A DNA stretch of 61,539 bases from Craspedostauros australis (taxonomy: Eukaryota). The notes below the pieces were generated by a model. It made no database searches. It was not told the DNA's origin and was given only the letters and a program-made list of their open reading frames with translations. The position numbers were made by a program, and so were the translations under genes. Location: positions 1 through 61,539 of the forward strand of contig JALAGF010006497.1 of assembly GCA_030167865.1 (NCBI GenBank). The letters are read 5' to 3'. Shown here piece by piece: positions 3,254 through 58,364 of the stretch; position 1 is the first letter of the stretch, and each line of letters starts with the position of its first letter.

Positions 3254-6200
3254 AGCGATCTCTCGTTCTGCCGTTTGAATTGCTGTGTTGAAGTTGCTGC
3301 TGGGAGTTGAGATTTGTGACCTGTGCTTGGTCTATGTTTGTGTTTGCGTTTGCGTTTGCGTTCAAGTTGTGTTCAAGTTTGTTTTATGAGTTTGTGAGGA
3401 GAGGAAAAGATCCTTCCGCTGATGGGTTGGTGGGCCCTCGGCGTTCGCTTGGAGACTCGTGCGCAGTGGAGGATCATTGCCGCAGGTGTGGTTGTGACCG
3501 TCGTCGAAGTTGCTCTGTGATTTCTTCAGCCTCTCTCTCTTTTCTCTCCGCTCCGATTACGAGTGCGTGTACTACCACGAGCAGCTCACACAAGGACAAG
3601 CAGTTCGCCTGTTGGTGTCTCTGTTTGTTGTCGTGGGCCTGGGGTGGAGGTTTTGCTCTTCTGTCCTTCCTCGCCGATGTTCGTTTTCCCTGTGTGCTGT
3701 GTAGTGTTCGTAGCTTGAAGCTTTCGTCCTTGTGCGCTCTCGGCGAAGAGGTATCTTGCCATGCATGCAAAGAAGGAGCAGTTTTTGATCCTGGACCTGC
3801 AAAGCACGTCGAGCATCCAGGTGTGCTAAAACCGCCAGATCGGTGGTCTTGGGTACTTCGCTGCGGATGTCTCGTTTTTCAGTGACAACATTGCTGAGCA
3901 GTTTTCTGTAGTACTTTCAATAACCGTGGGTACCATGCATATCGGTTTCAGTCGAGCGTCAATGCTGCAAAGAGGGCGACTTAGGGACGCAGTGGAGGTC
4001 ACGAACAAAGACAATGGGAGTTCGGTGACGTTCTGCGGAAGGGCCACCCAATTCCATGGCAATTGTGCGAAGAGTACCTCGTCCGGCCCCGAATGTCCAG
4101 TCGTTGTCGCCAACCGACCGCGTCGCAACCAACACTCGTTTTGATGGGGAATTGTTGGCCGAGAAGAATGTCGAGGTAAAAAAAACGTGTTCTCGTTCTT
4201 TTTGTCTGCGTGATGTCCCCACATACCCAGGATGCCTTGAAACCGGTTGCGTTCCTCCACGTCGGTACTTCCGAAATGATGTTCGTAACAACGCTGGGCT
4301 CATCTCACACCCTGTTCCATGGAACGGCATAGGTGTCGGTCGCTGCTCTGTCATGTTCTGTGCCATGGGATGGACAGGTTGGACAACGCAACGAGGTGCA
4401 GCAATAGAGCACTCTGCTCTCCTCTACTCCATTCTCAAGCATTGTACAGCATTGTTGCTCCAAACTTGATGAAGGAGGAGCGCATCGGCAGAGTGCTCTG
4501 CGACTACGAGATCGCAATCTACCATCGAGTACTTCTTCTCGTACTCGTATGTACCAGTACCATCGATGTACGGTACCTACACACTCGTGGTACTCTGTCT
4601 ATTCGCTGGAGATCTGGGAGCACACCAACACATGGTACCAGTGTCAAGAGTTGAGTGAACATCAAGTCGCATCCTCTCCCTGTAGCACACATACGCGTAG
4701 TCCTTGCTCGTATAGTAAGTACGAATAAGCGCACATGTCAATACTTATCTTCACACCAGCTCGATGGAGAAGCCTCCCTATGTTCAACATGGACGAGACG
4801 ACACAACATCTAACCGTGCTGATCAAACAGGTATACGCACCAGGAGGCACTTGAACTCCATAACGCGGATACACACAGCACAAAAGGGTTGCCACAAGCA
4901 TGTGGCACGACCTATTGAATCGAGCAACTCCCGCTGCTGCGAGTTACGTGGCTCGGATAGTATCTATTGTAGTTGTACGACCGACTCCTTGGAACACCAT
5001 CCATCGAGAGGCAGCGTGCGCGTCGGCAGCTCGGAGGCAATCGACCAGGACCTCTTCGTGCCACCCCCTGGCGAGATCAAGGGTACGCACCCTCATTTGC
5101 ATTGTATCGTGTCACCAGCGCAAACGCCACCATGCAAATCGGCACTGTCCATCTCCGCCGAGCGTCGCCGTGATGTTCATCACTCCGCAATGCTCGTGGC
5201 GTGTCGCCTTCGCCCAAGGAGAACAAGCTCTGCGGCACAGAGTGTAGTCTGTATAGTACCTCCACGCACGTCCAAGTGAATGCCATTGCGAAACACTCGG
5301 CGATCTTCGTACCCGGATGGAGATGTTGGAGGATGCGCCGGCGAGATTCATACACACATCACATAGGCCGTCCATTCCGGTTGCCCAGATAGGTGGTCAC
5401 CCATTCCCGTCGCCAGTGTTGTGGCGAAGCTGTTGGTGCCTCGCATGTGTGAGCAAGGATCAAGGCCGTGGTCTCAGTCATGGCCTCTCCGCTGCAAAGA
5501 GAGGCCAGTCGTGACAGAACTGGAGGCACAACAGAACAAAGATGAATGAATGAATGAATGGGTTGGTGGATGCATGGGCAGTTTGGGAGGTGCGCTTGGG
5601 GTACTCTGGCTTGCTCGGAAGTAAGTTACCACAGTCGAATGCGCTCTCGTCCTTCTCCTTCCGAGATTACATGTCTTCGCAGCCAGTCCAACGTTCGCAA
5701 GACAGCTGATGCTCTACTTTGCGACATCTGTCCCAACAGTAAAGCTCAACGCGCCCCGTCGCACCGCACTCTGCCGTTGAGTACTTGTACTTTATGAATT
5801 TACTAATTTATTTAGACACGCATACATGTTCCTTTTCTCCTCACAAGAGGACATCACGAAGAACCAATCGTCTCTAGTTCGGCTATCGCGTTCGACACCC
5901 CTTCATCACACATGCCCGTGTGTCATAATTGTTTGAGCCAGATGTGATGCTTCCATTCATTTCGTGTCAGTCGTGCCATTTCCCAGCGACAAACTCTCTT
6001 GCGGTGAATGGTGTGTTGCCCAGCGACTGGCGAGAACGAGACGGGACAAAATGGACAAATCCACATCCACAGCGACGCATGCGGTCGAATGGCTCAAAGC
6101 AGCGTTGCGAGTCTTGCCATTGTTTCGCCTGTGTGGTCGAACGAATCAAAATTGTAACATGAATGTGGTGTTTGTCTGAACGAGTCTTGGGGGGATCTTA

Positions 6201-8917: not shown

Positions 8918-11900
8918 ATGAATCAGGCACGGCACCTTGCGATTCTTGGGGTTCGGGCCATCGTTGTGCAACTTCTTCTCGCAGCAACGTTGGTCCCACC
9001 ACCTCCAACATCAGCAGCAGCAGCAGCAGCAGCAGCAACGCCTTCTTTCAATGGATTCCCAACCCAAGATGTACGGTTTGTGATAGAATCATTTGATAAG
9101 GGCGAGGGCGATGCGCGCTGGACAGCAACGCTGCACAACAACAGGGGCAAGGTGGACTCCAGCGAAGTCGCTGTGCCACCACTCATCCTCAAGGGCGGCA
9201 GGGATGATATCAACATGGCCGACAATGCGATCTTCGTTGAGTACCGTTCCGTCATGACAGAGACCTGGGGTGGGTTCGTCAGCATGGAGCGGTTCTTCCA
9301 GGACAGCCCCGTCTCTTGCGTGGGCGCCGACCATGTGGAGCTGGAGTATAAGATCATCCAACCCCAGAGCGCTGCCGGTCGGGCGCATCTTCGCATCATC
9401 CTGGTGGAAGACTCGGACACCAGCGACGAGCTCAAGTTGGAGAGATACTACTCCTTCCAGCCCATATTAGACGACTCGCCATCGGCCGACTGGATGGTCA
9501 TCAAGGTCCCCTTGGTGGGAGACGATGACCCAACGTCCCCCTTCCACATCCCGGGATGGAGCGGTGGCATTGGGAACCAAGTGCTAGATCTGGAGCACAT
9601 TCGGGGATGGTCTCTGGAGTGGAACATCGACAACGTCGGCGACGTAGGAAGCTTCAGCGAGGGCAGCATGCTGATCCGTGGCTTATCTTGCGTCCAACAG
9701 CTGGAGGTGGCCGCTTTCCACGAACCCAACATGACCTCCTTGGATGGCGGTGACTTGGATGCGGACGCCGTTGCTGATGCCGATGCGAATGCGTCGGTTC
9801 CAGTGTCGTTGCTTGCGGCCGACATTGGAGCATACCCAGCAACAACCGATGATGATAATCGAACGAGGCTCGTTTATCATGGATCACTCCTCGATTCCCC
9901 CCTTCACGTGGATCGGCAGAACGCGATGTCGGACGATGAGGTCTACGACGAATCGAGATTTCTGGAAGGGGCATGGCACCAGACGCTGGAGGTGTTGTCG
10001 CAGGCACCATCAACGAATCCAGGCACCGACCAGATCTTCGTCACGACATCCTTTGAGGATGGTGTTGCCACGACATGCTACTCAACCACCGAAAAGCCGA
10101 ACGGAACTGCACCCTCCACCATGACTTCAGCAGCACCGTATAATTCCACCTCCACCACAACACAAACCACCTTCCAAGTATCATTAGAGTACAAGGCGCC
10201 TCGAGAGCTATACTTCAATCTAACATCAGATGTCAGCAGCCTACTTCTGGACGTGGAGTGGCACCCAGACGGAACGAATGCCACCGTGCAACAGCAAGTG
10301 GCCACCGTACAGCTCACTGTCATCGGAGACACTGATTATTGCGATGGGAACACCACTCAGCGCCTGGATTCATGCGGCGAGGACCCTTCAAGACATCTCT
10401 CAACAGAAAGCTCCCTGTCTCCGTCATCGCAGTCGTCGTCAGAACAACCTGCACCTATCAGGTTCCGCGACTTCACACCGCCCACACCGGAATGGAGGCG
10501 CATCAAGGGGTACCGAATCACGTTCGCATTGTCGGTGCCAGCCGATCAAATGGCCGACACCTCGACGCAAGCTGAAGCTGAGGATCTGTCTGGGCGATTC
10601 GTCATTTCGAATCTTCTCACTGAATTGACTACGTTCCATTCAGGCAACTTCTCAGACTTTGACCCAAATGGGGGCGACGGGGAACTCCCCACGTGCAATA
10701 TCATCGAAGAGATCAACGCCGACATCAGTGGGCCACAGTGGCGGGTCTTTCAGTTCTCGGCCGGCCAATGTTGCGACATCTGCATCCAGGCGGGGGAAGA
10801 TTGCAGGTACTACACAATTGGCACCTTCCGATGCGCCTTTGCACCGTACCTCGATGTTTTTATTGATGCAGACACAGACGCGTCTATCGCTACAGGCGGA
10901 AACGGGAACACAGGAGCCATTGGCAGCTCGAATGCCACAGAATCACCTCCGCCATTGAATAGTGTCCGCCCTCCCGTGGCGATCGCAACAAACCAAGAAG
11001 ACATCCTAAATGCGAAGGTGTACTGGAAGGATGATACGCAGCTACGCGGCGACTTCTGCAGACTCTGCATCTGCGACGAAGTGGCACGTCACATTGACTG
11101 CAGACACAAGGAATTGCGCCAGATCCCAAAGACGTTCACGCCCCAAGGGCAGACCAGCTCATCCGCCTCGTGGAAGCCGCTGATGCTCGACCTCCGCCAA
11201 AACCCAGGTCTCTTCGTGCTGGGAGCGGGCATGCTCGATGCGGAGATCTTCTCACAGCTGCGCGAAATCAGGTTGCCCAGCACGATCATATACACATCCT
11301 CCCGAGCATTTATTGGATTGTCCAACCTCGGGATGGTTGATATCGCTGAAAACGAGATCAATGACGATGGTACGGCCATCCCCTCCTTCGACAGAAACAC
11401 CATCACCGACGACGATGGCATCTTCACCAACATCTGTTGCAGTCGCCGTGAGTCCAGCATTTCTTCACTTGCACCAACGAACAAGCTCTCATTCTGCGAC
11501 ATTCAACACTTCAAGCCTGGCATCGATGCCGAGTACGAGCCTTTCGTCGAATACGTTGATGCCTCGTGGATCACAACCTTGCAGCAGTCGTCCTCCTTCA
11601 TGGCGGAGGCAGCCGAATCGGCAGAGAAATGCGCAGAGTACTGCTCGATTGCTGCCCGATGTGAATTCTTCACGTACGATGCGCGGTTGGGGAGGGCGGA
11701 GCATGTCTGCCACCTGTTGGAAAACCGTGGCGAGCGACAATCCGAAGTTTGTTGCAACGCCGCCGATTACGCGGATGAGATTAAACTCTCACCTGGCTTC
11801 ACCTCTGGGTACCCGCCCCGCACACGGCACGTACTGGATGACGCAAGAGTCATCATCCTTCAGACTGACCTCACGCTGAACGAGGGCAATGGGTACGCGG

Positions 11901-14900
11901 CAGAGTACCAGCTCCGGTTGGGTGCCATGCCAAAGCGCGGTGCTGTCTGGGTGGACGTCGACATGACTTCATCCATCCACGAGGACTTTCACGTTTCCAT
12001 CACTCCCAAGCGCCTCGCGTTGTACGACAATGAAACCGTTGCAACTGTTTCCGTCCGCATCTCGGATATCAAGGACGATGCCGACGGCAAGACCATTCTG
12101 GTGGCCAACTCCATCTCATCCTGCGATGTCGCTTTCCTTGAAAGAGATGCCCAATCGTTGGACGGCATCGTCTACGTCAAGGTGGAGCACCCTGTATCGA
12201 CGCCGGTCCAAATCATCGAGAGGATCTCCGGAGGCGACAACGAAAGCCGCACGCTCCTATTGGCAATCCTCATCCCGCTCGTGTGCTTGCTGGTTGTCGT
12301 TGGCGTGTACCTCTACGTCGAGCACAAGAAACGAATGGCCGATACCGTCTGGCAAATCCAATCCACAGAGCTTACTTTCGGCGACCCACCAGAAATGATC
12401 GGCCAGGGCACCTTCGGGCTGGTGTTGCTGGCGGACTATCGTGGAACTCAGGTTGCCGTGAAGAGAGTGATCCCGCCTTCCACCAGCAGCTCAAGTCAAT
12501 CCTCTTCGATGGGAGTATTTCGGCGCCGTCGCAACGGCTCTGCGCTCCGGAAAAGCCTGTTCAGTTCTCCCATTTCGCCTCGCCAGAACATGTCCTCGTC
12601 CAATTTGCCGCCGCAGGCAGAATGGAGCGACAGCCAGGAGAGCAACGGCAGTCGCGGCGACACAGATGATACCCAACACACACCGGTTCCCAACGGTGAA
12701 GCGATGGACTTGGAGAGCGGCCTACGAAGCGCGGAGCGATGGGACGAAACTGGGGACTCAGCCGTTCGGCGAGATCGTTCAATGGATGGAGGCACTGCGA
12801 GTACAACTGGCGTCTCCAAAGGAAGAATGTCATCCGTCTTCATGACGAAGAAGACTGACAGCAGGAAGCTGCAAAATGACTTCATCTCGGAAATGCGCCA
12901 TCTGTCCAAGCTGCGTCATCCCAACATCACAACCATCATGGGTAAGTTCCGAACACGAGCCATCAGACGTGCCTCCTGCTCTATGTACGAGTATGTCGAG
13001 CATGTCGATCATTTCTCTTCCAGATTTCTCGCCCGTCTCGTGCGGATGTCTCCCCCATGATATACTCGATCCTTTCCAGTTCTGTTGCATTGCATTGCAC
13101 AATGCAACCTGCTCGACAGGATTTCTTGGCACGAATCAATCAGTCCACCTCCAACCATGCGTGTGTACTCATGCATTGATCTCGCCTCTCTTGTTTTTTG
13201 TTCTGGGCCGGTCAATCTCATTCGGAATTTCAACGCCGACGATCATCTGATGTGAATTGGGCTGCCCGTTCTACTCGACTCGACTCGACTCCACTCTGTT
13301 CTCCTCTGCTGAATTCAGGTGCCGTGTTGGATCACAAGGACCCGTTGTTGGTCATGGAGTACATGGATCATGGCTCCTTGTATGATGTCTTGCAGAATGA
13401 GACCATCAGACTCGAGGGTGAGCACATCCTGCCCATCCTTCGCGACATCTCCATCGGCATCAGATTTCTGCACGCCGCGATGCCGCAGGTGATCCACGGC
13501 GATCTCAAGTCCCACAACATCCTCATCGACAATCGCTTCCGAGCAAAGGTTGCCGATTTTGGATTCTCTCAGAAGAGGAGCATCGACGTGAGAGGCACGC
13601 CGTACTGGATGGCACCCGAGCTACTACGCAAGGAGACTTCGAACAACACAGCCACAGATGTGTACTCCTTTGGTATCATCCTGTATGAAATCTATTCCAG
13701 AGCCGATCCGTACGAAGACGAGGACTACGACGAAGTGATCAAACTCATCATGGACCCATCGGTTTGCAAACGACCGGGCGTTCCAAGCGAAACCCCCAAG
13801 CGCATCCGTGCGCTGATGGGAAGATGCCTGCGGGAGAATCCAAGCGAGCGTCCTACATTCGAAGAACTCAATCAAGACTTCAAGAAGTGCGATGCGACGG
13901 AAGTTGATCCGCAGCTCAAGCGAACATCGATGCGTTCTCGGAAGGCTGCATCGCCGCAGCATGACACGGACAAGCTGCTCTACGGCGTTTTCCCTCCTCA
14001 TATTGCAGAAGCGCTGAAGGCGGGACGCAAGGTCGAGCCTGAATCGCATGACCTGGTGACCATATTCTTCAGCGACATCGTTGGTTTCACCACGCTTGCA
14101 GCGACCATGACGCCGCTTGAGATCTCGGACCTCCTTGACCGCCTGTACCACGCCTTCGATGATCTGTCCGAAAAGTACGACGTATTCAAGGTCGAAACCA
14201 TCGGCGATGCGTACATGGCATGCAGTAACCTTGTGAACGAGCAGGAGGATCACACGAAGAGGATTGCGCAGTTTGCCATCGATGCTGTGAAGGTGGCCAA
14301 CCGAACTCCCATCTCCATCGAAGATCCATCGCGTGGTACGGTCTCCATCCGAGTAGGCTTTCATTCGGGGCCGGTGGTTGCCAACATCGTGGGGTCGCGA
14401 AACCCTCGATACTGTCTCTTTGGCGACACTGTCAATACAGCCTCGCGGATGGAAAGCCATTCCATGAAGAACCGCATTCATTGCTCCGACCGCTCCTTGA
14501 AGCTGCTCCAAGCGCAAGATCCAGACAAAGACATCCCCTCGGTGTCTCGGGGAAATATTGAAATCAAGGGCAAGGTAAGGATCCTCGACACAAGGTTTAC
14601 GGTACATCAACAACAGAGGGCAGAGACTGTTGCACATGAATGTACCATATGTACTCTCCATGATAAACTTCACGTCGACCGTGGCCGTGAAGGGTCGGTC
14701 GCGTCTTCCTTCCATTCCATTCCATCATATCCCAATCCAATGCATTCATCTCACCGCAACCTGTCTTCTTGCCATCACACTGCCGACTGCATACTGCCGA
14801 CTGCCTGCTGCTCGCTGCCACATTCCGGAACGGTAACTGTCACCCTTTCGCCGTGGTCGTTGCATCTCTCATTTTGATGTGCGCTCCTGTACTTGTATTC

Positions 14901-34109: not shown

Positions 34110-37100
34110 ATGACACCCAGCATGTTCACCATGGCGAATCCTGGCGCAGCCTCGAAGACGGCACCACTGCCGATCAAGTCACACGCATCCAAGGCTGCTG
34201 CTCCCACCATCATGGCCATCATGGTGCTGTCGGCAGCGACCGCTCCAGTTGCCAATGCATTCGTCCATCCAAGATTCGCCAACGTGCTGCCATCCTCTGC
34301 AGCCTCCTTCATCGCTGATCCTACCACAGTGCACACACCAAGCCAGCCTTCCTCGTATGATGGGCATCTCATGAAGGTCGCTCTGAACAAGCCGTCTTCT
34401 CTCAATGCTGGGGCAAGACTGCAAGATCGAGACACTGAGCAGGCACATGCGAGCCACCGTTCGAATGGTTGCGCCTCGAGTAGCAACGCTGCCAACAGGG
34501 GCAACATCAATAGCATCGCCAACCAAGAAGACGACTGCCCATCCACAACTGAGACATCCGAGCGGGTTCTATCGTCCAGAACAGAAGGCGCATCCACTCC
34601 CCGAGATCGACGCTTGTTCTTCGCATCGTCGTTGTTTGGCGCAGGCGCGCTCCTGACTGCTGATGCTGGCCCATCCAACGCACTTGAGGCTGCGGTGGCG
34701 GATTCGACGTTGCCCAATCCTTCCTGGGTGAAGGACCCCATCAACAAACGATTCGGCGTGACGGTGGATGACGCCACCAAGGCTGGATACAACGATGCCT
34801 TCATCACCTACCTCACCCGTTTCCTCCTCAACTTCGACAAGGACACGCAGGCACTCTGGTTCACGGAGCAACCGAAGATCCCGCTGCGCGCCACCGAAGA
34901 GCAGATCGACCAAATTCGCTTGGAAGAGTTCGCTCAGTTCGCAGCATCCATCAGCGCCAACCTTCTGCAAAACTACGCCGGATCGGACGGGCCCACCAGG
35001 CTGCTGCAGCAGCTCAAGAATCGCTACTGTCCCGCTGACATAGTCAACTCCGGCATCAAGCCAGCATCCGCCTCGAAGGGTGTGGACAGCAAAAACGACG
35101 ACCCAGCCTCAAAGAAGCGTAGGCGACAACGACGCGAAGCACGTGAGGCGCAGCGACAGCTCGCGATCCTTTTCGGTCTGCTCGGACGCGAGGTCCAGCC
35201 AACCAAGGAAATCACCAAGCTCCTTGGTGCCGTCGACAACGCCTCGTTCCAATCGGTGGTCTTCAACGTCGTGTCTGACAAGCCGACGGTCCTCAACGGA
35301 TTCACCAAGGATGATCCTGTCCCGGCCATCACCTTACCTCCACCGCAAGCCGAAGGCGATCAGTTCAAACAGGCAGCTGGTGTCGCCAAGCTCACGCCGA
35401 CAGGCAAGATCCTGCGCGTCAAGCTGGACGATGGTGGAGCAGGGTATGACCCAAAGTCACCACCAACAGTCACAATTGCACCTCCAGCGTCGATAGCGGA
35501 GGGTGCCCGTCCGGCCGTGCTGAAAGCCAATATCGTTGCAAGAGGACCCAACAAAGGATCCATCGAAAGCATTGACATGGTCGACTTCGGCGCAGGATAC
35601 GCCAACCAAGACAAACTGGAGATCACCATTGAAGCACCAACAGTTCCGGAGGCAGCAGGCGGCGAGAACCCAGCCGAAATCGATCCAAGTGCCATCCGAA
35701 GCGCCAAGGCGACCGCCTTACTCGATCTAGAAGTGACTGGGGTCCAGATCACGGAACCTGGCTCCGGGTACGCTGCAGAACGACCTATCAAGGTCCTACT
35801 TGAGCTTCCGCCGACGAGGAATGGACGAGAACCGGAGAGAATCGAGGTGGGAAAAGCATCGCCCCAGGCAGAGAAGACGTCCTACACTTCGTTCCGCAAG
35901 CAGGGTGATACCAAAACCATCTCGGAGAAGCAGGACCAATTCAAGGACAAGTACAAAGTCCAACCGAATGAGAGGAAGGGTACCGACAGCAATGAATCCG
36001 AAGATGAAAATGACGACGGAAAGGGTGAAAGGATCGTCAGCGGAACTGCCAGTGGTCCTGACAGTGGGTTGCCCGCCTTGCCCTTCTTGGGGCGCGCGTC
36101 GCAGTCTGAGCAGCTGCTGTCCCTGCTCCCGGAAGGGTTCGGGTTAGAATACGACGTGAAGCAAAAGTACTACTTCCTCTCGGTCGCCCCAGACTACTTG
36201 ACCAAATATACGAACCTCAGCCAGCAACCATCGGCCAACCGTCCTCTGGTGCCAGACTTTGGACCTCGCGGACGATCTCCCATCGAGCGCGACATGAAGC
36301 TGGGTCTCGCAGCCTACCTGCGGTTCAGCCTATCTGGTGCGATCTGCGCATCGGGCGTTCATCTCGCGCTGACTCCGCTGGACGTCGTGAAGACCAAGGT
36401 CCAGACCAACCCGAGCAAGTACGCCTCCGTGGGATCGTCGTTCGGCACCGTGCTGAAGGAGGAAGGCGCGTCGACTTTCTTCACCGGATGGGTGCCGACC
36501 TTCCTGGGTAACTTCGTGTCCGGCGCAACCCTGTACGCGCTGACCGAAGTCATCCGGCGCAGTCTCACGGAAGCAGCGGGCGTGGACGCGCTGAGCCTGG
36601 AAGTCCCCATCATTCTCGCTGCTGCGGCAGTCGCGTCGGCCGTGGGATCCATCATCATCTGCCCATTCGAAGCTGTCCGCATCCGATCCGTCGCGCAGCC
36701 GGACTACGCACCGAACGCATTCGGCGTGTGCAAACGGCTGCTGGACGAGGAGGGCATCGGATCGCTGGTCAATGCAATCCCGGTATTCCTGGCCAAGAAC
36801 ATTCCGTACGCGATGGTGAAGTTCACCGTGTTCGATCTGTCCACGGAATACCTGTTCCACACCTACCCGATCGCCAACGAACAGCTGGAGCTCTCGCTGC
36901 TGATCAGCCTGATCGGCGGCATCCTGGGTGGCACGTCCGCCGCCATCGTCTCCAATCCCGCCGACGCCGTGATCTCGGAGCTGAAGAAGGCGAAGTCTGA
37001 TATGTCCCCGCAGGAGGCCGTCACGAACATCCTGGATCGTGGCGGTGTGTCGGAGCTGTTCAAAGGATTGCCACTTCGCATGGTGTTCTACTCACTGGTG

Positions 37101-37223
37101 GCGAGCTTGCAGTTCTCGGTATACGATGGTGTCCGTTTTGCGTTGGGCATCGGTGCAGATGATCTGAAGCTGTACTTGGACATTCTCGGAGGGGCTCTTG
37201 CAGGAAAGGGGGGTCCGATCTAA
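34110..37223 (+). CDS. Mitochondrial carrier family (phosphate carrier-like) protein with ~730 aa N-terminal extension, probably plastid-targeted
   Basis: Three carrier signatures (PLDVVKTKVQ, PFEAVRIR, PADAVISE) typical of PiC/Mir1. N-terminal hydrophobic stretch ending VANA|FVH. First in-frame ATG at 34110; alternative start at 34212. Confidence 0.88.
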   Translation: MTPSMFTMANPGAASKTAPLPIKSHASKAAAPTIMAIMVLSAATAPVANAFVHPRFANVLPSSAASFIADPTTVHTPSQPSSYDGHLMKVALNKPSSLNAGARLQDRDTEQAHASHRSNGCASSSNAANRGNINSIANQEDDCPSTTETSERVLSSRTEGASTPRDRRLFFASSLFGAGALLTADAGPSNALEAAVADSTLPNPSWVKDPINKRFGVTVDDATKAGYNDAFITYLTRFLLNFDKDTQALWFTEQPKIPLRATEEQIDQIRLEEFAQFAASISANLLQNYAGSDGPTRLLQQLKNRYCPADIVNSGIKPASASKGVDSKNDDPASKKRRRQRREAREAQRQLAILFGLLGREVQPTKEITKLLGAVDNASFQSVVFNVVSDKPTVLNGFTKDDPVPAITLPPPQAEGDQFKQAAGVAKLTPTGKILRVKLDDGGAGYDPKSPPTVTIAPPASIAEGARPAVLKANIVARGPNKGSIESIDMVDFGAGYANQDKLEITIEAPTVPEAAGGENPAEIDPSAIRSAKATALLDLEVTGVQITEPGSGYAAERPIKVLLELPPTRNGREPERIEVGKASPQAEKTSYTSFRKQGDTKTISEKQDQFKDKYKVQPNERKGTDSNESEDENDDGKGERIVSGTASGPDSGLPALPFLGRASQSEQLLSLLPEGFGLEYDVKQKYYFLSVAPDYLTKYTNLSQQPSANRPLVPDFGPRGRSPIERDMKLGLAAYLRFSLSGAICASGVHLALTPLDVVKTKVQTNPSKYASVGSSFGTVLKEEGASTFFTGWVPTFLGNFVSGATLYALTEVIRRSLTEAAGVDALSLEVPIILAAAAVASAVGSIIICPFEAVRIRSVAQPDYAPNAFGVCKRLLDEEGIGSLVNAIPVFLAKNIPYAMVKFTVFDLSTEYLFHTYPIANEQLELSLLISLIGGILGGTSAAIVSNPADAVISELKKAKSDMSPQEAVTNILDRGGVSELFKGLPLRMVFYSLVASLQFSVYDGVRFALGIGADDLKLYLDILGGALAGKGGPI

Positions 37224-39946: not shown

Positions 39947-42900
39947 TCAAAAGAAATCATCGTCGCTTTCGCTACTTCCGGCACCGACATCCATGTCCTG
40001 ATCGCCATCGCTGTCTGAATCCCCAAGATTCTGAACGTGAAGCGTGCATCCCGGGCTCAGCTTTCCCCTGAGTTCGGTGCTTCCGTCACCGAACACTGTA
40101 TCCGATACAGTCTTTCGAGCTGGAATTGACACCAAACTCTTCTTAGTCTGCTTCTGCCTCTGTTTCATCTTACTCCTCAACTTGTTTTCTCTGTTGATGT
40201 CCCTCTTCAAGCCCATCAGGTAGGTCTTGTACCCTTTTGGTCGATGATTCGGCCGCAGGGATAGATCATGGTCTGGTTTGGCCTTGATTGCGCTGCCTAG
40301 ATCCAGATTTGCAAGGTATGACACGTCCAACGGTGGGAGGCCCGAGATGGGGAACAGCTCCTTCATGGGAGTTGCATCGAAGATGTCATCTTCCTCCGGC
40401 GAGCTCATGCAGGAATCCCTCTCACTTGCCTTGCTCTTTGCGTCGTTGGCCATCCTCGCTGCCTTCGTCGTAGGCGTCTTCACCAAGGAGAAGAACTTAT
40501 CCTGGCATTCTGCGGCACTTCTGTTCGGCATCCTCTCCGCTACATCACACCAGAATGTGGAAGAAAGTGGGTCGATCTTGCTCCTCGTGGAATGCAGCAG
40601 ACTCAGCTCGTCCTGAGTCCATTCATCTGCACGAACTGAACTTGTCGGAACGCCGTCCACACCTGCTGCGATTGTGACTTTCTTCACCGGTGACTTGGAA
40701 GTGTTGGACGACGACTTACGACTCCCTTTCAACGCGGATACTCGTCTGTTCGATTTCCCGCGCTTCTTGCGATTGGTCTTGCCGTCGTCGTAGTCGCTGC
40801 TGGCGTCGTTGTCGTCAGCCTCCGATGTGACATGTTGCTCTTCCCTCGATTCCTCCTTTTCCTCTTGCTCTTGCTGTTTTTTGTTGTTTGGAGCAAGATT
40901 CGTTTCCATGGCCTCAGGACTTGCATCCATGTACGTGCCGAAACGATTAGTCTGTCGACGACTGCGCCTGGACCGGCGGACATTGCCTTTGGATTCTTCC
41001 AATGAGACGTTCATCGCGACATTCACTTCAGCCTCGTCGGTCATCCGTGCAGTTGATTTGCTTCGATTTTCCTCACCGAGCGCCTTCATCTCACTGGAGT
41101 TCGCTGCTGTTGCTATTTCCAAATCTGGATCTGAGCGGCATGATTCTGTTTGTGATGACGTTTGTGAAGTGTTTGATGAAGTGGATGCATCCGATATGCG
41201 CGATGAAGTGGATGCACTCGCTGAGTCCTCTGATGAACTCGGCGCTGAATTCTGAGATATGATTCTTTCGTTCTCAGATGGATCGTCCGCATCAACGATG
41301 GGTTGCTCCTGGCTTTGGGCTGCCTGCACCATTGAGTTGCTGGTTGAGCTGCTGGTCGTACTGTCGTTGGAGAGCCGCTTGCTCCTCCTTCTCTGCTTCA
41401 GCGAGTGCTTCGTAGCAGACTTCTTCTTCGTCGTCACTCTCTTGTCGTTTTGCTTCTGCTTGGTAGCAGACGACCGCCGTTTTCGCTCTGATTTGCGTAA
41501 TGATGATACAGCAACATGGCGTGGTGTCGGCTGGTCTTGTGGTGGTGAGTCACGGGCATCAGTATCATGTATTACCTCTTCAACGATTGGTTCATGAAAC
41601 GAGGAGTCTTGGTGGAATGCTCGGCGAACTTCGTCCAACGATCTGCGACTCTTTGCATGGAAGCGATTTGGGCTGCGGTCGATTGACACAGTTGCGTCGA
41701 AGCTTTCCATGCGAGTTTCGCTTGCAGGTGTCATGAGTTCTACGTCGTTGGTACGATTCGTTGTGTCTTCCTTACGGTCGTGTTGCGTGGCCACTGCTCG
41801 AAGAGGGGACGAGCTGATGCTCGGCCTGTCGCTCTCTCCTGTCGTTTGCTGCGCGGCGCTGGACTTCCTCCTATCGTCACTGAGTGTGGAAGCTGGTTGG
41901 TCCACCAAGTTTGGAAACATGGCAACATCCATGTCGATGGGACTGGCAGTCGCTGCGTCCCTTCGGATGGTCGAGCAACAGATGGCGTGCGGTCGTCCCC
42001 CGTGACATGTTAGCGGTTCCCCACCGCTAACACTGTTCTGTGCCGATGCGCTCGAGCGCCGTCGCTGGCTTTGTCGTCTGGATGATTGTTTGCATGAATG
42101 TTTGGATTTGGACGTTGCTGGTGCTTGGAGCTTTCGATCGCTTGCAGAGGAGACCTCATCAGCCGTCTCGGTTTGGCCTGCAGTGGTGCCGATGGTTGCA
42201 ATTTGCATGTCATCCTGATGAGGTTCCAGCTGCGCGCTATTTTCTCTTGATGCTGGAAGGCAGGGCTTTCTGAGGGAGGGTGGATCTGGCGCCCTGTCGC
42301 TGGTGGTGAATACATCTGCAACGATTTCATTCATAGCATCCACCGGCTGCTTCAGACTGTCTGTCGTCGCTGCCGTCTCCTCTGGCGGATCAGGTCGTTG
42401 CACCGCTCCATTCTCGCGCAAGTTGTAGCGTGACGATTTGCGACGGTTTTTTGCGCCAGGCGGGTCATTCCGGTCCGATGGGTCCCAGCTGGGCAGGACC
42501 GGCATGTAGTAGCTCGTCGATGTGGATTCAGTCGCATGACAGGAACCCATACTTGTAGTCAATATCGGTTCAGACAAGACGCTCGTGACAGGATCGGGCT
42601 TTTCCTCTGATGCACGAGTATATACTCCGTCTCTGGTTTCGCGTTCATCAGGTGTGATGCCATCGCTCGCGCTGGCTGCGTTGGCCGTTCCCAGTCGTTC
42701 ATCATCCATCGCGTCGATCATAGCTGTGTCGATGTCGTCATTGTCAGCAGGCTGATCAGGAATTGTTGGCTGGCCATCCGATTCGGTGAAATCATCCGAT
42801 GCCAGAGGTAGGACTGCGTCGTGCTCGTCACGATGATCATTCTCGTCATCGGTCTTGTTTGGTGGAGATTCCTGTGGTGCGCTGCAGTTCATGGCATCGC

Positions 42901-44365
42901 TGATTTCGTCCCCAGTTTCTGTCTGTGTCGAATCTGTTGCTGCCAACAGTTCCGGTTCTGTGGTGTCCCGCTCTGGTAGGGCGATGCGAGTGTTTGCAGC
43001 GCCGGGTGCCCCATCCGCGTGTTCTTCGCTAGCAGCGTCTCCATCTTCAGAAACCGTTGCGAGGTTCTCTGCGTTGTGGTCTTCCACTTCGGCTGTTGGC
43101 GCAGTCTCGCATGCAGCACCTTGCAGCGTTTCATCTGATGGATTGTCGTCTGTTGCAGTGTTGTCCGTGGTGTGTGCTGATATCTCTTGCTCCGCTTTCG
43201 CTTTCGCTTCCACTTCCTCCGACAATGCTTTTCGTTTGTGCTCATCCCGCAGGAGCCGAGAAAGCGTTGACAGCGATCCTGATGCTGGCCTGGACCTCGA
43301 TCTTGATCTTCGTTGTGATCTCGACCGCGATCTGGATCGCGACCTTCGTCGAGGGCGGCTTCTCGATCGTGATCGTTTTCGTCTCTTGGGACTACGAGTC
43401 AGCATCGTTATCGACGCATTGATCTGCTCTGTTTGATCCTTCGATCCATCCTTCGATCCATCCTTCCCGCATCCCATTGGTTTGACGAACATTTCACCCA
43501 GCACACCGAATCCATTCGATTTGCTCGTTTTGGGACCAGCCGGTTTCTTCGTTCGCTTCGAACGGCTGCTGGTGCGACCGCGTTGGAATGATGTCGAGGT
43601 CGAGGTCGATGTCGACTGTTTCTCCTCCGTTGCATTGCTCGCGTTTGCTACGTTCTCCTTGTCGAACAGCATTGCGAACATCCCGATGCCAGATGAAGCG
43701 GCCTTTGCTTTGCGCGATCTCGATGCCTTTCCTTGATGGATGGCTGCGGTTCGTTTCGTCGATGCAACTGCTTGGTTCTTGCTTCGTTCCTTTGTGGCCG
43801 ATGATGATGACGATGATGAGAGAGATGTTGTAGATGAGGATAAGGACGACGGACTCTTCTTACGCTTGCGAGTCTTCTTCTCTGGCTGTGGCTCTCGCTG
43901 TTGATGTGGCGCTTTCGGTTCACGTGTCGATCGATGGTGCGCACTTTGGGTCCGCTTCTTGGTGATGTTGTGAATCGATGACAGAGCATCGCTCCTGAAA
44001 CCTCCGATCGTTCCCACAACCTGGCTCTTTGCCGACGTGGTTGGCCTCAGCGTCTCCTTTGCTTTCGCCTTCGCCCTCGCCTTCGACGATTGCGACAGCG
44101 TTGACCGCTTCGTCTTTTTCTTCGACTCGGTCTTGTTGTTCTGTTGCCCTTTGCTTCGGTGCACTTCCGCAGCTGCAAGGCCCGAGCTCAGCATGGCCAG
44201 GCTGTCTACCGGCACCAGTGGTCGATTCTTTCTCCTCGTGCTGACGGAGAGAGTTTCATCTTCATCGGCGGCCTTTTGTGCATCGTTCGACGTGGTGTTG
44301 CCCAACGGGAACAGTACCTTTTTAACAACATTCATCGTCGTCTTCGTTGAGGACATGGCCTTCAT
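39947..44365 (-). CDS. Large disordered nuclear protein with a C-terminal SANT/Myb domain (M18BP1/KNL2-like)
   Basis: 1472 aa ORF, Ser/Lys/Arg-rich with an RS tract; EWTQDELSLL...FWCDVAERMPNRSAAECQDKF followed by EEDDIFDATP. Confidence 0.82.
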   Translation of the reverse strand: MKAMSSTKTTMNVVKKVLFPLGNTTSNDAQKAADEDETLSVSTRRKNRPLVPVDSLAMLSSGLAAAEVHRSKGQQNNKTESKKKTKRSTLSQSSKARAKAKAKETLRPTTSAKSQVVGTIGGFRSDALSSIHNITKKRTQSAHHRSTREPKAPHQQREPQPEKKTRKRKKSPSSLSSSTTSLSSSSSSSATKERSKNQAVASTKRTAAIHQGKASRSRKAKAASSGIGMFAMLFDKENVANASNATEEKQSTSTSTSTSFQRGRTSSRSKRTKKPAGPKTSKSNGFGVLGEMFVKPMGCGKDGSKDGSKDQTEQINASITMLTRSPKRRKRSRSRSRPRRRSRSRSRSRSQRRSRSRSRPASGSLSTLSRLLRDEHKRKALSEEVEAKAKAEQEISAHTTDNTATDDNPSDETLQGAACETAPTAEVEDHNAENLATVSEDGDAASEEHADGAPGAANTRIALPERDTTEPELLAATDSTQTETGDEISDAMNCSAPQESPPNKTDDENDHRDEHDAVLPLASDDFTESDGQPTIPDQPADNDDIDTAMIDAMDDERLGTANAASASDGITPDERETRDGVYTRASEEKPDPVTSVLSEPILTTSMGSCHATESTSTSYYMPVLPSWDPSDRNDPPGAKNRRKSSRYNLRENGAVQRPDPPEETAATTDSLKQPVDAMNEIVADVFTTSDRAPDPPSLRKPCLPASRENSAQLEPHQDDMQIATIGTTAGQTETADEVSSASDRKLQAPATSKSKHSCKQSSRRQSQRRRSSASAQNSVSGGEPLTCHGGRPHAICCSTIRRDAATASPIDMDVAMFPNLVDQPASTLSDDRRKSSAAQQTTGESDRPSISSSPLRAVATQHDRKEDTTNRTNDVELMTPASETRMESFDATVSIDRSPNRFHAKSRRSLDEVRRAFHQDSSFHEPIVEEVIHDTDARDSPPQDQPTPRHVAVSSLRKSERKRRSSATKQKQNDKRVTTKKKSATKHSLKQRRRSKRLSNDSTTSSSTSNSMVQAAQSQEQPIVDADDPSENERIISQNSAPSSSEDSASASTSSRISDASTSSNTSQTSSQTESCRSDPDLEIATAANSSEMKALGEENRSKSTARMTDEAEVNVAMNVSLEESKGNVRRSRRSRRQTNRFGTYMDASPEAMETNLAPNNKKQQEQEEKEESREEQHVTSEADDNDASSDYDDGKTNRKKRGKSNRRVSALKGSRKSSSNTSKSPVKKVTIAAGVDGVPTSSVRADEWTQDELSLLHSTRSKIDPLSSTFWCDVAERMPNRSAAECQDKFFSLVKTPTTKAARMANDAKSKASERDSCMSSPEEDDIFDATPMKELFPISGLPPLDVSYLANLDLGSAIKAKPDHDLSLRPNHRPKGYKTYLMGLKRDINRENKLRSKMKQRQKQTKKSLVSIPARKTVSDTVFGDGSTELRGKLSPGCTLHVQNLGDSDSDGDQDMDVGAGSSESDDDFF

Positions 44366-55428: not shown

Positions 55429-56846
55429 GATGATGGATCTACTCGCATGGTCAAGATTGATCCTCTGCTGCGTCCAACGAGTGTGTGTGGTCCCATGGTC
55501 CATCAGTACTCGCGCTTGCTCGACAGCCGCCACCATTGGAGAATAATTGCTAACCTTTCACACACATCCATCGTCCACAGGCAGCTCGTATTGCGTAGCG
55601 TATTGATGTATAGTACTCACAATCGTTGTCATGAATCCACAAATTCAGCAATCAATTCACAACAGGTTGGGAGACCGCGGCGACATTGGTGGTGGTGGCG
55701 GTGGTGGATCAAAACGACATGTTCTCGGCAGCCTCGCTGAACGTGATGGTTTGGCCCCACCAATGCCTTGGGAAGCGTGGTAAAGACGATGTCCCTCCCT
55801 TGTTGGTGCGTGTATCCGGCAACCGATCTTTTGGAGGCGACATGGATGGCGTTTGTGCTGTCTCTTGATTGTTGTCGCAGCCGTGTGTTCGTCTTGTTTC
55901 TGGTCCAAGTGCTTCCGGGTTCTGTGGGATGACACAAGTAGTTTCTGGCCGATCCATTCTCCAGTGAATGAACCGAAGTGCGAACTGGGTGGGCATAACA
56001 CCGAAGTGGAACAGATTGTTGGTTCCAAACGCGATCCAGAGAAGCGATGTTTCTTTGGGGATGGGGACAAGGAATCATGAGATTGTTCTCCCCTCCATCG
56101 GTTGGAACCCATGCGTTCGCGTGATGCGATTGACACTTCTCTGGGTACATTGGAGTACCCGTACCAATCCGAACAGAACTCGTCACGATAAATGGTGCAT
56201 GTCAGAATGTCCTCTCCAACCACCCATGGTTGCGAACCGTTGTGTCTGTTCGCTCCCACCAACTGGCCATGGAAAGTACCAACGACAAGACAACGCACCC
56301 CTGCCATCAATGCCGAAGGAGAAGCGAATTCAGAACTGCGTCGAAAGAGCCGCCCCAGAGAGCGCTGGCCAGAATTCCAATGTGAACCATGCGCGTCTGC
56401 AGAGAGCGGTTTTGAAGCCGTGTACCAACAAGGATGATTGCAGGGCAGAGAGGGCGCGTCCATGCTCCCGCCGTACGACTACAAACAAGCTGCTCCATGC
56501 CCGCAGAGGAGGCGCTGGCCGAAGGCTTGCTACCAGCAACACAACAGGAGAGAAACGCAAACAAGAGAAACACAAACAGAGGAGAAGGAGCAACCAGGAG
56601 CACCACAGTACTATACATCGATCACAGAGAAACACAACAAGAACAACAGCAACAACAGCATCACAACCACGAGGACCAACAGCACTGCACAATACTCGGA
56701 CCATACCATACAACACACCCTCACAATCCATCACCCTTCGCCACACCCGTAACCCTGGCCGTAGCTGTACCTCCGACCGCGTCCACAACAACGAGTCTCG
56801 CACCAGAAGTGAGAAGCCAACTTCATCAGCATCCACAAGCCCCAAC

Positions 56847-58364
56847 ATGATCGTACCATCGCATCTGGAGTCGTCACCGGCCTTTGATCATGCTCGTACA
56901 ATGCTGCCTGCCAAGAAGCCAGGCAACAGCACCGCGTTCACTTCGTCGGCACAAACCAACAGGATCAAGAAGACCGGAGTGAGTGTCTCGGAAACGTCCA
57001 GAACAACCGCTTTGCATGCGAGCGATGGCCAAAGCAGTTCTGCCGCACAAGTCGATGCCCCCACAGATCGACTTCATGCAGATTCCCAAAGACCAACATT
57101 GATGGCAGCCACCAAGTCGCCGGGAACCGCCGTGGATGGCAATGTCAATGGAGATAAGGGTCTGGACAGCCACGCTGGTGTCGCCGCCGCTGCGGCTGCT
57201 GCTACTCATAGCAATGGCGATGTCGGCAATGACGAGACTCCAGTAGCAACCCAATTGAGATCAATATACTCGACATTGACTACACACAGCGGCACCAGCA
57301 CATACGATGAGTCTTCCCCAACAGATGACCAGGCTGACAATGACCAGAACGACGTCAGTGTTGACAATCAATGTCGCAAGGATCTTCGCCAACCCAGCAG
57401 CAGCGCAAGCCTGTTTGAGAGACGTAGGTACATCCTGCACATCACGTGGCGATCCGTCAACTACGGTCTGCGCGACATGAAGGCCATCGAGATCTTTTAC
57501 GATCGTTTGTTCTCTCAGCACCCGTCCGTCAGAGAGCTGTTCCCCGCCAGTATGAAACAGCAACTCAAGAAGATCTTTCAGGCCATCTCCTTTGCCGTTC
57601 GTTGCCTGGATGAGATCGGCGACGATGCACTTGACATTGATCTGGGCGATAGTAGAAATCACGACTTGAGCACGCAATCCATAAGAACGAGGTCAGATTC
57701 AGACTGTAGTGGAGACGGCATGAAAGAAGATAAGCAACGCAGCGAGGCATCCATCGCTTGCTTTGCCAACAGCAGCAGCAATGACAATGGAGACGACGAA
57801 GGTGGAAGCTTCTGGACCTACCAGAGCCATGTTTCATCGTACAGCAACTGGGATTCTGAATGTCAAGATACGCATGCTGCTACAGATGCAACACGCGCCA
57901 CAGGGGCAACAGGAGATGGATCCAGCGCCCAACGCAGCGAGGAACGAACGCACGGAACTGGGAATGGCGGGAACAAAAGCACGAGCCCAAAACGCACAAG
58001 CAAAACCAAGGACAGCGGAACGGACCGCCTGATCCCGGTCCTGCAGGAATTGGGACGTCGGCACTCCGTATCGTACGGTGTCAAGCGAGAGCATTACTCT
58101 GCTGTCGCGGAATGCTTCGTGTGGACACTGCAGACCTACATGATGGATCAGATGGCCTACATGGCGCGCGGCATGGCCTACGATGTTGCAGATGCGTGGG
58201 GGTTCGCGCTGCAGTTCATTGGCACCATCATGGCAGATGCTGGTGACGAAGCGCTGCGGCAATTGCAGGATGAGCAGGATGCGATGCAAGACATGTCGTC
58301 GTCAAGCGAAGGCAGCGACGGTGGCGAAGATGGCGATAAAGTTGCCACCAGCAATCACCGCTGA
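56847..58364 (+). CDS. Globin-domain protein (flavohemoglobin-type 3/3 fold) with a long internal insertion
   Basis: ATG 56847 chosen (follows a CA-rich leader). N-half TW...IEIFYDRLFSQHPSVRELF...KQQLKKIFQAI; C-half LIPVLQELGRRH...YGVKREHYSAVAECFVWTL...DAW. Confidence 0.85.
   Translation: MIVPSHLESSPAFDHARTMLPAKKPGNSTAFTSSAQTNRIKKTGVSVSETSRTTALHASDGQSSSAAQVDAPTDRLHADSQRPTLMAATKSPGTAVDGNVNGDKGLDSHAGVAAAAAAATHSNGDVGNDETPVATQLRSIYSTLTTHSGTSTYDESSPTDDQADNDQNDVSVDNQCRKDLRQPSSSASLFERRRYILHITWRSVNYGLRDMKAIEIFYDRLFSQHPSVRELFPASMKQQLKKIFQAISFAVRCLDEIGDDALDIDLGDSRNHDLSTQSIRTRSDSDCSGDGMKEDKQRSEASIACFANSSSNDNGDDEGGSFWTYQSHVSSYSNWDSECQDTHAATDATRATGATGDGSSAQRSEERTHGTGNGGNKSTSPKRTSKTKDSGTDRLIPVLQELGRRHSVSYGVKREHYSAVAECFVWTLQTYMMDQMAYMARGMAYDVADAWGFALQFIGTIMADAGDEALRQLQDEQDAMQDMSSSSEGSDGGEDGDKVATSNHR

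Follow-up and report, generated by a model that had tools for sequence, protein, structure and literature searches.

In human cells, the HDDFF motif of M18BP1 is reported to dock on CAP-G2 and to activate condensin II; treatment with cyclin-dependent kinase (CDK) 1 raises the affinity for CAP-G2 about ten-fold, phosphorylated T993 was seen in crosslinks, and mutating the motif strips chromosomes of condensin II while CENP-A deposition stays normal (bioRxiv 10.1101/2024.05.02.592151). Binding of M18BP1 is described as relieving the autoinhibited state of condensin II (PMC13759321), and the binding site on CAP-G2 is placed at HEAT repeats 11-12 (PMC13252511). All homologues of KNL2 so far are said to have a SANTA domain (PMC11879092). 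Here we describe a predicted gene of the diatom Craspedostauros australis that departs from this pattern. It lies in a stretch of 61,539 nucleotides (contig JALAGF010006497.1 of assembly GCA_030167865.1, forward strand; hereafter the window) and comprises an open frame at 39947-44365 on the minus strand, present as a single copy in the assembly and encoding an M18BP1-like, mostly disordered protein of 1472 amino acids. An earlier note had read the 3' end of this frame, the interval under study, as the C-terminus of a divergent or split CENP-A loading factor. Our analysis favors a different assignment, to which we give a probability of roughly 0.55: that the protein derives from M18BP1, acts as a mitotic activator of condensin II and no longer licenses the loading of CENH3. 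The condensin II half of this proposal, taken alone, is probable.

The four motifs named in the earlier note are all present in the order it gave, on the minus strand and within one open frame, at 40202-40978. They are an arginine motif, RRSRRSRRQTNRFG, of the type RRSxRxxxx[PT]xR[FL] (40937-40978); a three-helix SANT/Myb domain of M18BP1 type (40490-40624); the segment EEDDIFDATPMK (40361-40396), predicted to dock on CAP-G2 and matching the complete CDK consensus, TPxK; and a helix, GYKTYLMGLKR (40202-40234). The SANT assignment draws on PDB and profile matches and on an AlphaFold prediction of the last 237 amino acids, with helices at residues 16-28, 36-43 and 49-59 of this piece and a predicted local distance difference test score (pLDDT) of about 90-97; Pfam, run on the 1472-residue protein, gives a weak Myb/SANT match under its cut-off (E 0.035). 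Between SANT and the docking motif, a conserved KTP (40472-40480, minus strand; T in 93% and P in 95% of aligned rows) is a possible second CDK site. The family motif G-S-[PA]-I follows as GSAIK (40283-40297, minus strand), with SA in place of what is commonly an SP site in the family alignment. The GYKTY region (family form GYKTY..[ML][RK]R) is covered by a predicted helix at residues 144-169, and its aligned counterpart in animal M18BP1 is the YI.RM[KQ] helix. Past the motifs of the earlier note lies a further conserved block, GDxExxGxLSPGGTL (40034-40090, minus strand; G 98%, T 93%, L 91% and P 91%), a family-specific beta-hairpin with predicted strands at 197-201 and 207-210 (pLDDT 61-79), followed by an acidic tail; this block has no clear animal counterpart.

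Comparison with the C-terminal fragment of human M18BP1 (MIS18BP1/KIAA1903; residues 873-1132; 1WGX, 9F5W) reveals the same order of elements: SANT, the CAP-G2 motif with its TP, a YI.RM-type helix and an acidic tail. The human protein likewise has a long disordered N-terminus and a single gene copy. The diatom family differs in that it has no detectable SANTA, lacks the GTxKRK segment and carries the extra LSPGGTL hairpin, and in that its spacer between SANT and docking motif has a median of 52 amino acids, against 73-78 in three animals; the docking motif is duplicated in some members, others carry a Tudor domain. Non-mammalian KNL2/M18BP1 (chicken, sea anemone, sea cucumber, fish; P0164-P0166) has an arginine-anchored motif upstream of SANT, as does the diatom protein, and the docking motif of the sea anemone and sea cucumber proteins is almost identical to the diatom one. 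These proteins have SANTA and a motif of the form RxxxxPxx[WFY]W, whereas the diatom arginine motif has no Trp and frequently occurs in more than one copy. As in the alpha and beta KNL2 proteins of plants, modules of M18BP1 appear to have been lost separately; plant KNL2 keeps SANTA, with or without CENPC-k, and has no detectable SANT, and the diatom family is its mirror image, with SANT and the condensin motif kept.

Descent from M18BP1 was assessed by searches in both directions. Queried with the single sequence, the PDB returned the human M18BP1 SANT domain (1wgx) first, at E 0.0011, with DNAJC2 at 0.034; a 19-sequence family profile sharpened this ranking to 2.3e-8 and 4.5e-8 for M18BP1 and about 2.5e-5 for DNAJC1/2, and also matched another stretch, DDiFnstPm, to human DDHDDFFSTTPL (9f5w_M), with 3.1 bits for that stretch alone. 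Run against a large protein database, the profile matched 18 proteins among 7998 candidates scored; 15 are diatom-like and three are the SANTA-bearing M18BP1 proteins of sea anemone, sea cucumber and fish, with no other named non-diatom protein among the 18. In the reverse direction, the sea cucumber C-terminus, our one animal query, picked out the Craspedostauros gene ahead of everything else in the genome (E 6e-4, with the runner-up at 0.27). A profile from which SANT had been removed scored 12 bits on two of three animal M18BP1 proteins, compared with at most 5.8 in local shuffles. The earlier note's link to M18BP1 is thus borne out by the PDB ranking, the database matches and the reciprocal best match, and sequence comparison makes common descent very likely indeed.

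The best-conserved element that the family shares with human M18BP1 is the docking motif. Conservation of DDIFxxTP among relatives, which the earlier note had named as a test of its reading, is confirmed by the pattern DD[ILVF]F..[ST]P, present in 153 of the 161 family proteins and in 10 of 16100 shuffled sequences; the set of 161 includes two multi-Myb proteins (P0146, P0149) that were left out of a set of 159 used elsewhere. A metagenome scan had taken the DDIF motif as its own pattern and so was not used as evidence of conservation. In the family alignment the motif columns reach D 98%, D 99%, F 98% and P 100%, and 166 of 177 motif instances have the full CDK consensus. Craspedostauros EDDIFDATPMK stands in register with human HDDFFSTTPL position by position, TP included (HDDFF 986-990, T993), and the diatom form is nearly reproduced by DDIFDSTPYK of the sea anemone and EDLFDATPYR of the sea cucumber. 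From this correspondence the motif would be the counterpart of the CAP-G2 docking motif of human M18BP1. Two or three copies of DDIF..TP occur in 20 of the 161 proteins; the extra copies (P0005, P0029, P0053, P0059, P0085, P0095 and others) lie mostly upstream of SANT and are concentrated in one well-supported clade. They could possibly provide multivalent binding of condensin II.

The proposed partner is encoded in the same genome. CAP-G2 was found at E 2e-39 and CAP-H2 at E 2e-19, the CAP-G2 gene having two exons at L003:3046-7289 (G000:C504, minus strand) with an apparent 212-nucleotide GT-AG intron at 5517-5728. A segment of the encoded protein aligns to residues 430-609 of human CAP-G2, and around human K496, a residue crosslinked beside the motif, 21/21 aligned sequences read YHVVP, within the best-conserved 40-residue window.

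The elements specific to centromere function present another picture: each is absent or altered. SANTA was detected by Pfam in 0/98 long members, with a sea anemone positive control at E 1.8e-22, and in the Craspedostauros protein there is none at E<=10; a three-sequence animal profile found none in the 159 family proteins (best 3.8 bits). The absence of SANTA claimed in the earlier note therefore holds for this protein. Its description of the preceding residues as disordered also stands, the region being poor in hydrophobic residues (top 90-residue window 0.23, against 0.31-0.42 in three genuine SANTA domains) with a single Trp in residues 1-1230, but its length is about 1240 rather than about 1100 amino acids. 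Because SANTA was not detected, we do not file the protein as canonical M18BP1/KNL2, and by domain definition, as its sequence stands, it is not a canonical KNL2. A search of the genome (a fragmented assembly of 6734 contigs; no eukaryote control) for Mis18 gave one Yippee-Mis18 match only, which we take to be a Yippee/YPEL protein. The CENP-C cupin (PF11699) had no candidate in the whole assembly, and the pattern PLx[YF]WxGE gave 11 matches; at the seven loci read there is no CENP-C-type gene, four being near-identical repeats, presumably of retrotransposon type, and three lacking CENP-C-like context. CENP-C of diatoms may have diverged strongly or have been missed by the search. A divergent histone H3 at L018:1483-2133 (G000:C4463, minus strand) is, by its sequence features, a candidate CENH3: its N-tail is short and rich in Arg and Pro, loop 1 has one extra residue, and the C-tail is polar and non-hydrophobic, ending GQHRE.

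In 90 of 119 long members, the set used for N-terminal and arginine-motif counts, RRSxRxxxx[PT]xR[FYL] occurs upstream of SANT (0.15 expected), often repeated two or three times. Set in the register of the CENP-C motif, position 0 is R, +5 is P or T and +8 is F, L or Y, and G, T or S predominate at +9; in Craspedostauros the P is replaced by T and the final Trp is absent. The canonical CENP-C motif, RxxxxPxx[YFW]W as defined from PMC4830207, is present in 3/3 animal M18BP1 controls, and among the 119 its RxxR form occurs in none and a relaxed form in one. The earlier note was accordingly right that the motif is CENP-C-like but lacks the canonical YW, the Trp being missing at the canonical position in all 119. 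Arginine-anchored motifs are common in chromatin proteins, and RRSxR, which keeps the anchoring Arg, reads as a putative general nucleosome tether.

Taken together, these results suggest a gene that would descend from the M18BP1/KNL2 lineage and whose main work would be the mitotic activation of condensin II. By analogy with the human protein, CDK would phosphorylate the TP after DDIF at mitotic entry, and the acidic-aromatic motif would then dock on the CAP-G2 HEAT repeats and free condensin II from autoinhibition, a step known in human. The long basic disordered region and the RRSxR motifs, joined by a Tudor domain in some species, may tether the protein to nucleosomes generally. With neither SANTA nor the CENP-C motif's Trp left, and Mis18 not found, CENH3 loading would no longer be licensed. 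A role as a CENP-A loading factor, as the earlier note proposed, does not follow from the motifs it listed, because the best-conserved shared element is the CAP-G2 motif, which in human is dispensable for CENP-A deposition, and the centromere-specific elements are absent or altered.

Several observations weigh against this proposal, some against its descent or condensin II half and others against the loss of licensing. Family members and CAP-G2 relatives were gathered by similarity to the very regions scored, which inflates their conservation. The GTxKRK segment that precedes the docking motif in animals is found in 0/160 family proteins, and fish M18BP1, in which the motif is degenerate, has no score with the SANT-free profile. 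CAP-D3 was not identified among the five of 12 Cnd1 matches checked, all of which are CAP-D2 or adaptins. The RRSxR motif is conserved and partly in the CENP-C register, and the loss of its Trp could be a co-adaptation, as judged from sequence, because the CENH3 candidate ends in a non-hydrophobic tail. Moreover, loss of SANTA need not mean that a centromere role is lost, since chicken KNL2 is reported to reach centromeres without the domain (PMC10015371) and a C-terminal part of Arabidopsis KNL2 without SANTA localises to centromeres (PMC11879092). Finally, the genome-wide searches that came back empty had no positive control, among them those for a stand-alone SANTA gene, made with the Pfam model and with an animal SANTA.

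The last points frame two alternatives in which licensing survives. The protein may still be bifunctional, activating condensin II and also licensing CENH3, with the centromere reached through a diverged CENP-C-like RRSxR motif that fits a likewise diverged CENH3 tail. The view of the earlier note comes nearest to this alternative, and the frequency, repetition and animal-like position of the motif, the polar tail of the CENH3 candidate and the dispensability of SANTA for targeting all speak for it. In chicken KNL2, however, the CENP-C-like motif's anchoring Arg binds the acidic patch and a Trp (W536) stacks on the CENP-A tail (PMC10015371), and it is the equivalent of this Trp that is missing in 119/119; human M18BP1 with a mutated SANTA surface is reported to lose both localisation and CENP-A loading (PMC12953894), and no Mis18 was found. 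We regard dual function as the main rival, possible but less likely than the proposal above. Alternatively, the gene may have split, a separate protein with SANTA, and perhaps the CENP-C motif, serving the centromere while the Craspedostauros protein represents the condensin half. That plant KNL2 has SANTA without SANT (PMC11879092) means that the two halves can exist apart, and SANTA evolves fast, so that uncontrolled searches of the genome leave some room for such a gene. Yet the genome yielded no candidate, the three-sequence animal profile found none in the window and 32 related loci (212 kb; best 6.8 bits), an ESM Atlas query with SANTA returned chordate and streptophyte clusters only, and no CENP-C-type gene appeared among the PLx[YF]WxGE loci read. 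The split suggested by the earlier note is neither borne out by these searches nor, in our estimate, at all probable.

A further alternative denies the descent itself: an unrelated SANT protein of the DNAJC1/2 or RADIALIS type would have gained the CAP-G2 motif convergently, possibly as an inhibitor resembling MCPH1. The SANT domains of DNAJC1/DNAJC2 and RADIALIS share the three-helix fold of the diatom domain, short motifs arise easily, the single-sequence PDB values are modest (0.0011 against 0.034), and Foldseek places the DNAJC2 SANT domain (rank 1, E 0.017) above that of M18BP1 (E 0.078). Neither of these structural matches is significant, no Foldseek match reached E<=0.001, and the search does not separate SANT subtypes; the grouping with DNAJC2 or RADIALIS that the earlier note had weighed is thus seen in a non-significant structural ranking and not in the sequence profile, where M18BP1 comes first and DNAJC1/DNAJC2 is about 1000-fold weaker. 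MCPH1, an inhibitor of condensin II, has a similar central DD-aromatic motif, YDDYF, and competes for the same CAP-G2 site, but in the 1472-residue protein Pfam finds no DnaJ (J), BRCT or Microcephalin domain at E<=10, and SANT and motif are spaced as in M18BP1. A Microcephalin search of the genome, run without a positive control, was empty. With the TP three residues past the aromatic pair, like T993 in M18BP1, and with profile ranking, reciprocal best match and post-SANT similarity all favoring M18BP1, convergence is the least credible of the explanations considered and would be surprising.

The last 237 amino acids of the protein match 228 cluster representatives at E<=0.001, of which the best 150 were listed. 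The conserved blocks of the family are SANT, KTP, EDD[IL]FN[SA]TPMR, GS[PA]I, GYK[TS]Y and GDxExxGxLSPGGTL. All named members are diatoms (Bacillariaceae sp., Thalassiosira profunda, T. oceanica and Chaetoceros neogracilis) and the closest ESM Atlas cluster is mainly Bacillariophyta; we call it a diatom family, a label that is partly inferred because few members carry names. A tree of 69 rows groups the Craspedostauros sequence with a Bacillariaceae sequence, with weak support. A Tudor domain (PF21743) occurs in 11/98 long members, and a small profile adds two clear and three decayed copies; those of PTM/DIR17 type are P0014, P0029, P0034, P0039, P0054, P0059, P0085, P0095, P0097, P0099, P0124, P0158 and P0159, and the decayed ones P0005, P0035 and P0046. 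The domain sits upstream of SANT, on either side of the arginine motif in different proteins, and is scattered over several clades, a pattern suggesting that a chromatin reader was lost or gained repeatedly; the Craspedostauros protein has none by Pfam or the small profile. At rank 9 of an ESM Atlas comparison stands a cluster of oomycete proteins, 42% of which have SANTA, with a likeness of 0.80 to the C-terminal module, a lead only; it hints that oomycetes keep both halves of M18BP1.

The 1472-residue frame without introns is a predicted gene model, and the protein finds solely itself below E 0.2 in its own genome. Near its N-terminus, KKVLFP (44306-44323, minus strand) begins at residue 15 and belongs to a family motif, [RK]xxLFP, that 54 of the 119 long members share (1.85 expected), at a median position of 16; we assume that it resembles a cyclin-docking RxL motif. 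With this motif at residue 15, as in the family, the 5' end of the frame looks complete, and a missed upstream exon carrying SANTA was rejected as an explanation. Other features of the N-terminal region, all on the minus strand, are VDSLA (44195-44209), an often repeated family motif in 44/119 members (1.0 expected); a KEN box-like tripeptide (43652-43660; 67/119, 24 expected), a weak candidate degron for the anaphase-promoting complex/cyclosome; and a tract rich in RS dipeptides, RSRSRSRPRRRSRSRSRSRSQRRSRSRSR, of SR-protein-like character (about 43292-43395). The adjoining genes encode a glycosyltransferase 90 and a mitochondrial-carrier-domain protein, and none of the 13 other long frames of the window shows a centromere or chromosome-segregation family. 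On the plus strand, 34110-37223 encodes a 1037-residue protein with a long N-terminal region and a C-terminal mitochondrial carrier domain; two neighbouring frames at 8918-14877, with PAN, kinase and guanylate cyclase domains, are probably one spliced receptor guanylate cyclase-like gene; and a 798-residue frame at 55968-58364 has a globin match at its C-terminus (E 1e-6).

We found nothing in the literature on diatom M18BP1/KNL2, in a search that left most subscription papers outside its scope, and the conservation figures of the condensin paper (bioRxiv/Mol Cell) might include stramenopiles; in a survey of kinetochores (PMC5579357), neither the text nor six supplements contain the terms Mis18 or KNL2. 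Because SANTA is described as a constant feature of KNL2 homologues, a SANTA-less lineage would escape domain-based surveys. The role of M18BP1 as a condensin II activator is a recent discovery whose conservation has been argued from human and nematode data, and a motif-exact diatom counterpart with its partner would extend this switch to a distant supergroup. By analogy, the SANTA-less variant probably functions like the C-terminal module of M18BP1. More tentatively, diatoms may have uncoupled the two jobs of M18BP1, keeping a CDK-switched condensin II activator, sometimes multivalent or Tudor-bearing, and dropping Mis18-KNL2 centromere licensing altogether. If so, the CAP-G2 switch would be common to animals and stramenopiles and hence very old. 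Diatom centromeres are described as short low-GC tracts that foreign DNA can mimic (bioRxiv 10.1101/096016) and that 'might not be epigenetically dependent' (PMC7082073), and a loss of licensing would fit such permissive centromeres. A SANTA-less M18BP1 lineage would be a natural case of separation of function, and diatoms, with their episome tools, would offer a system in which to ask whether permissive centromeres persist without epigenetic licensing.
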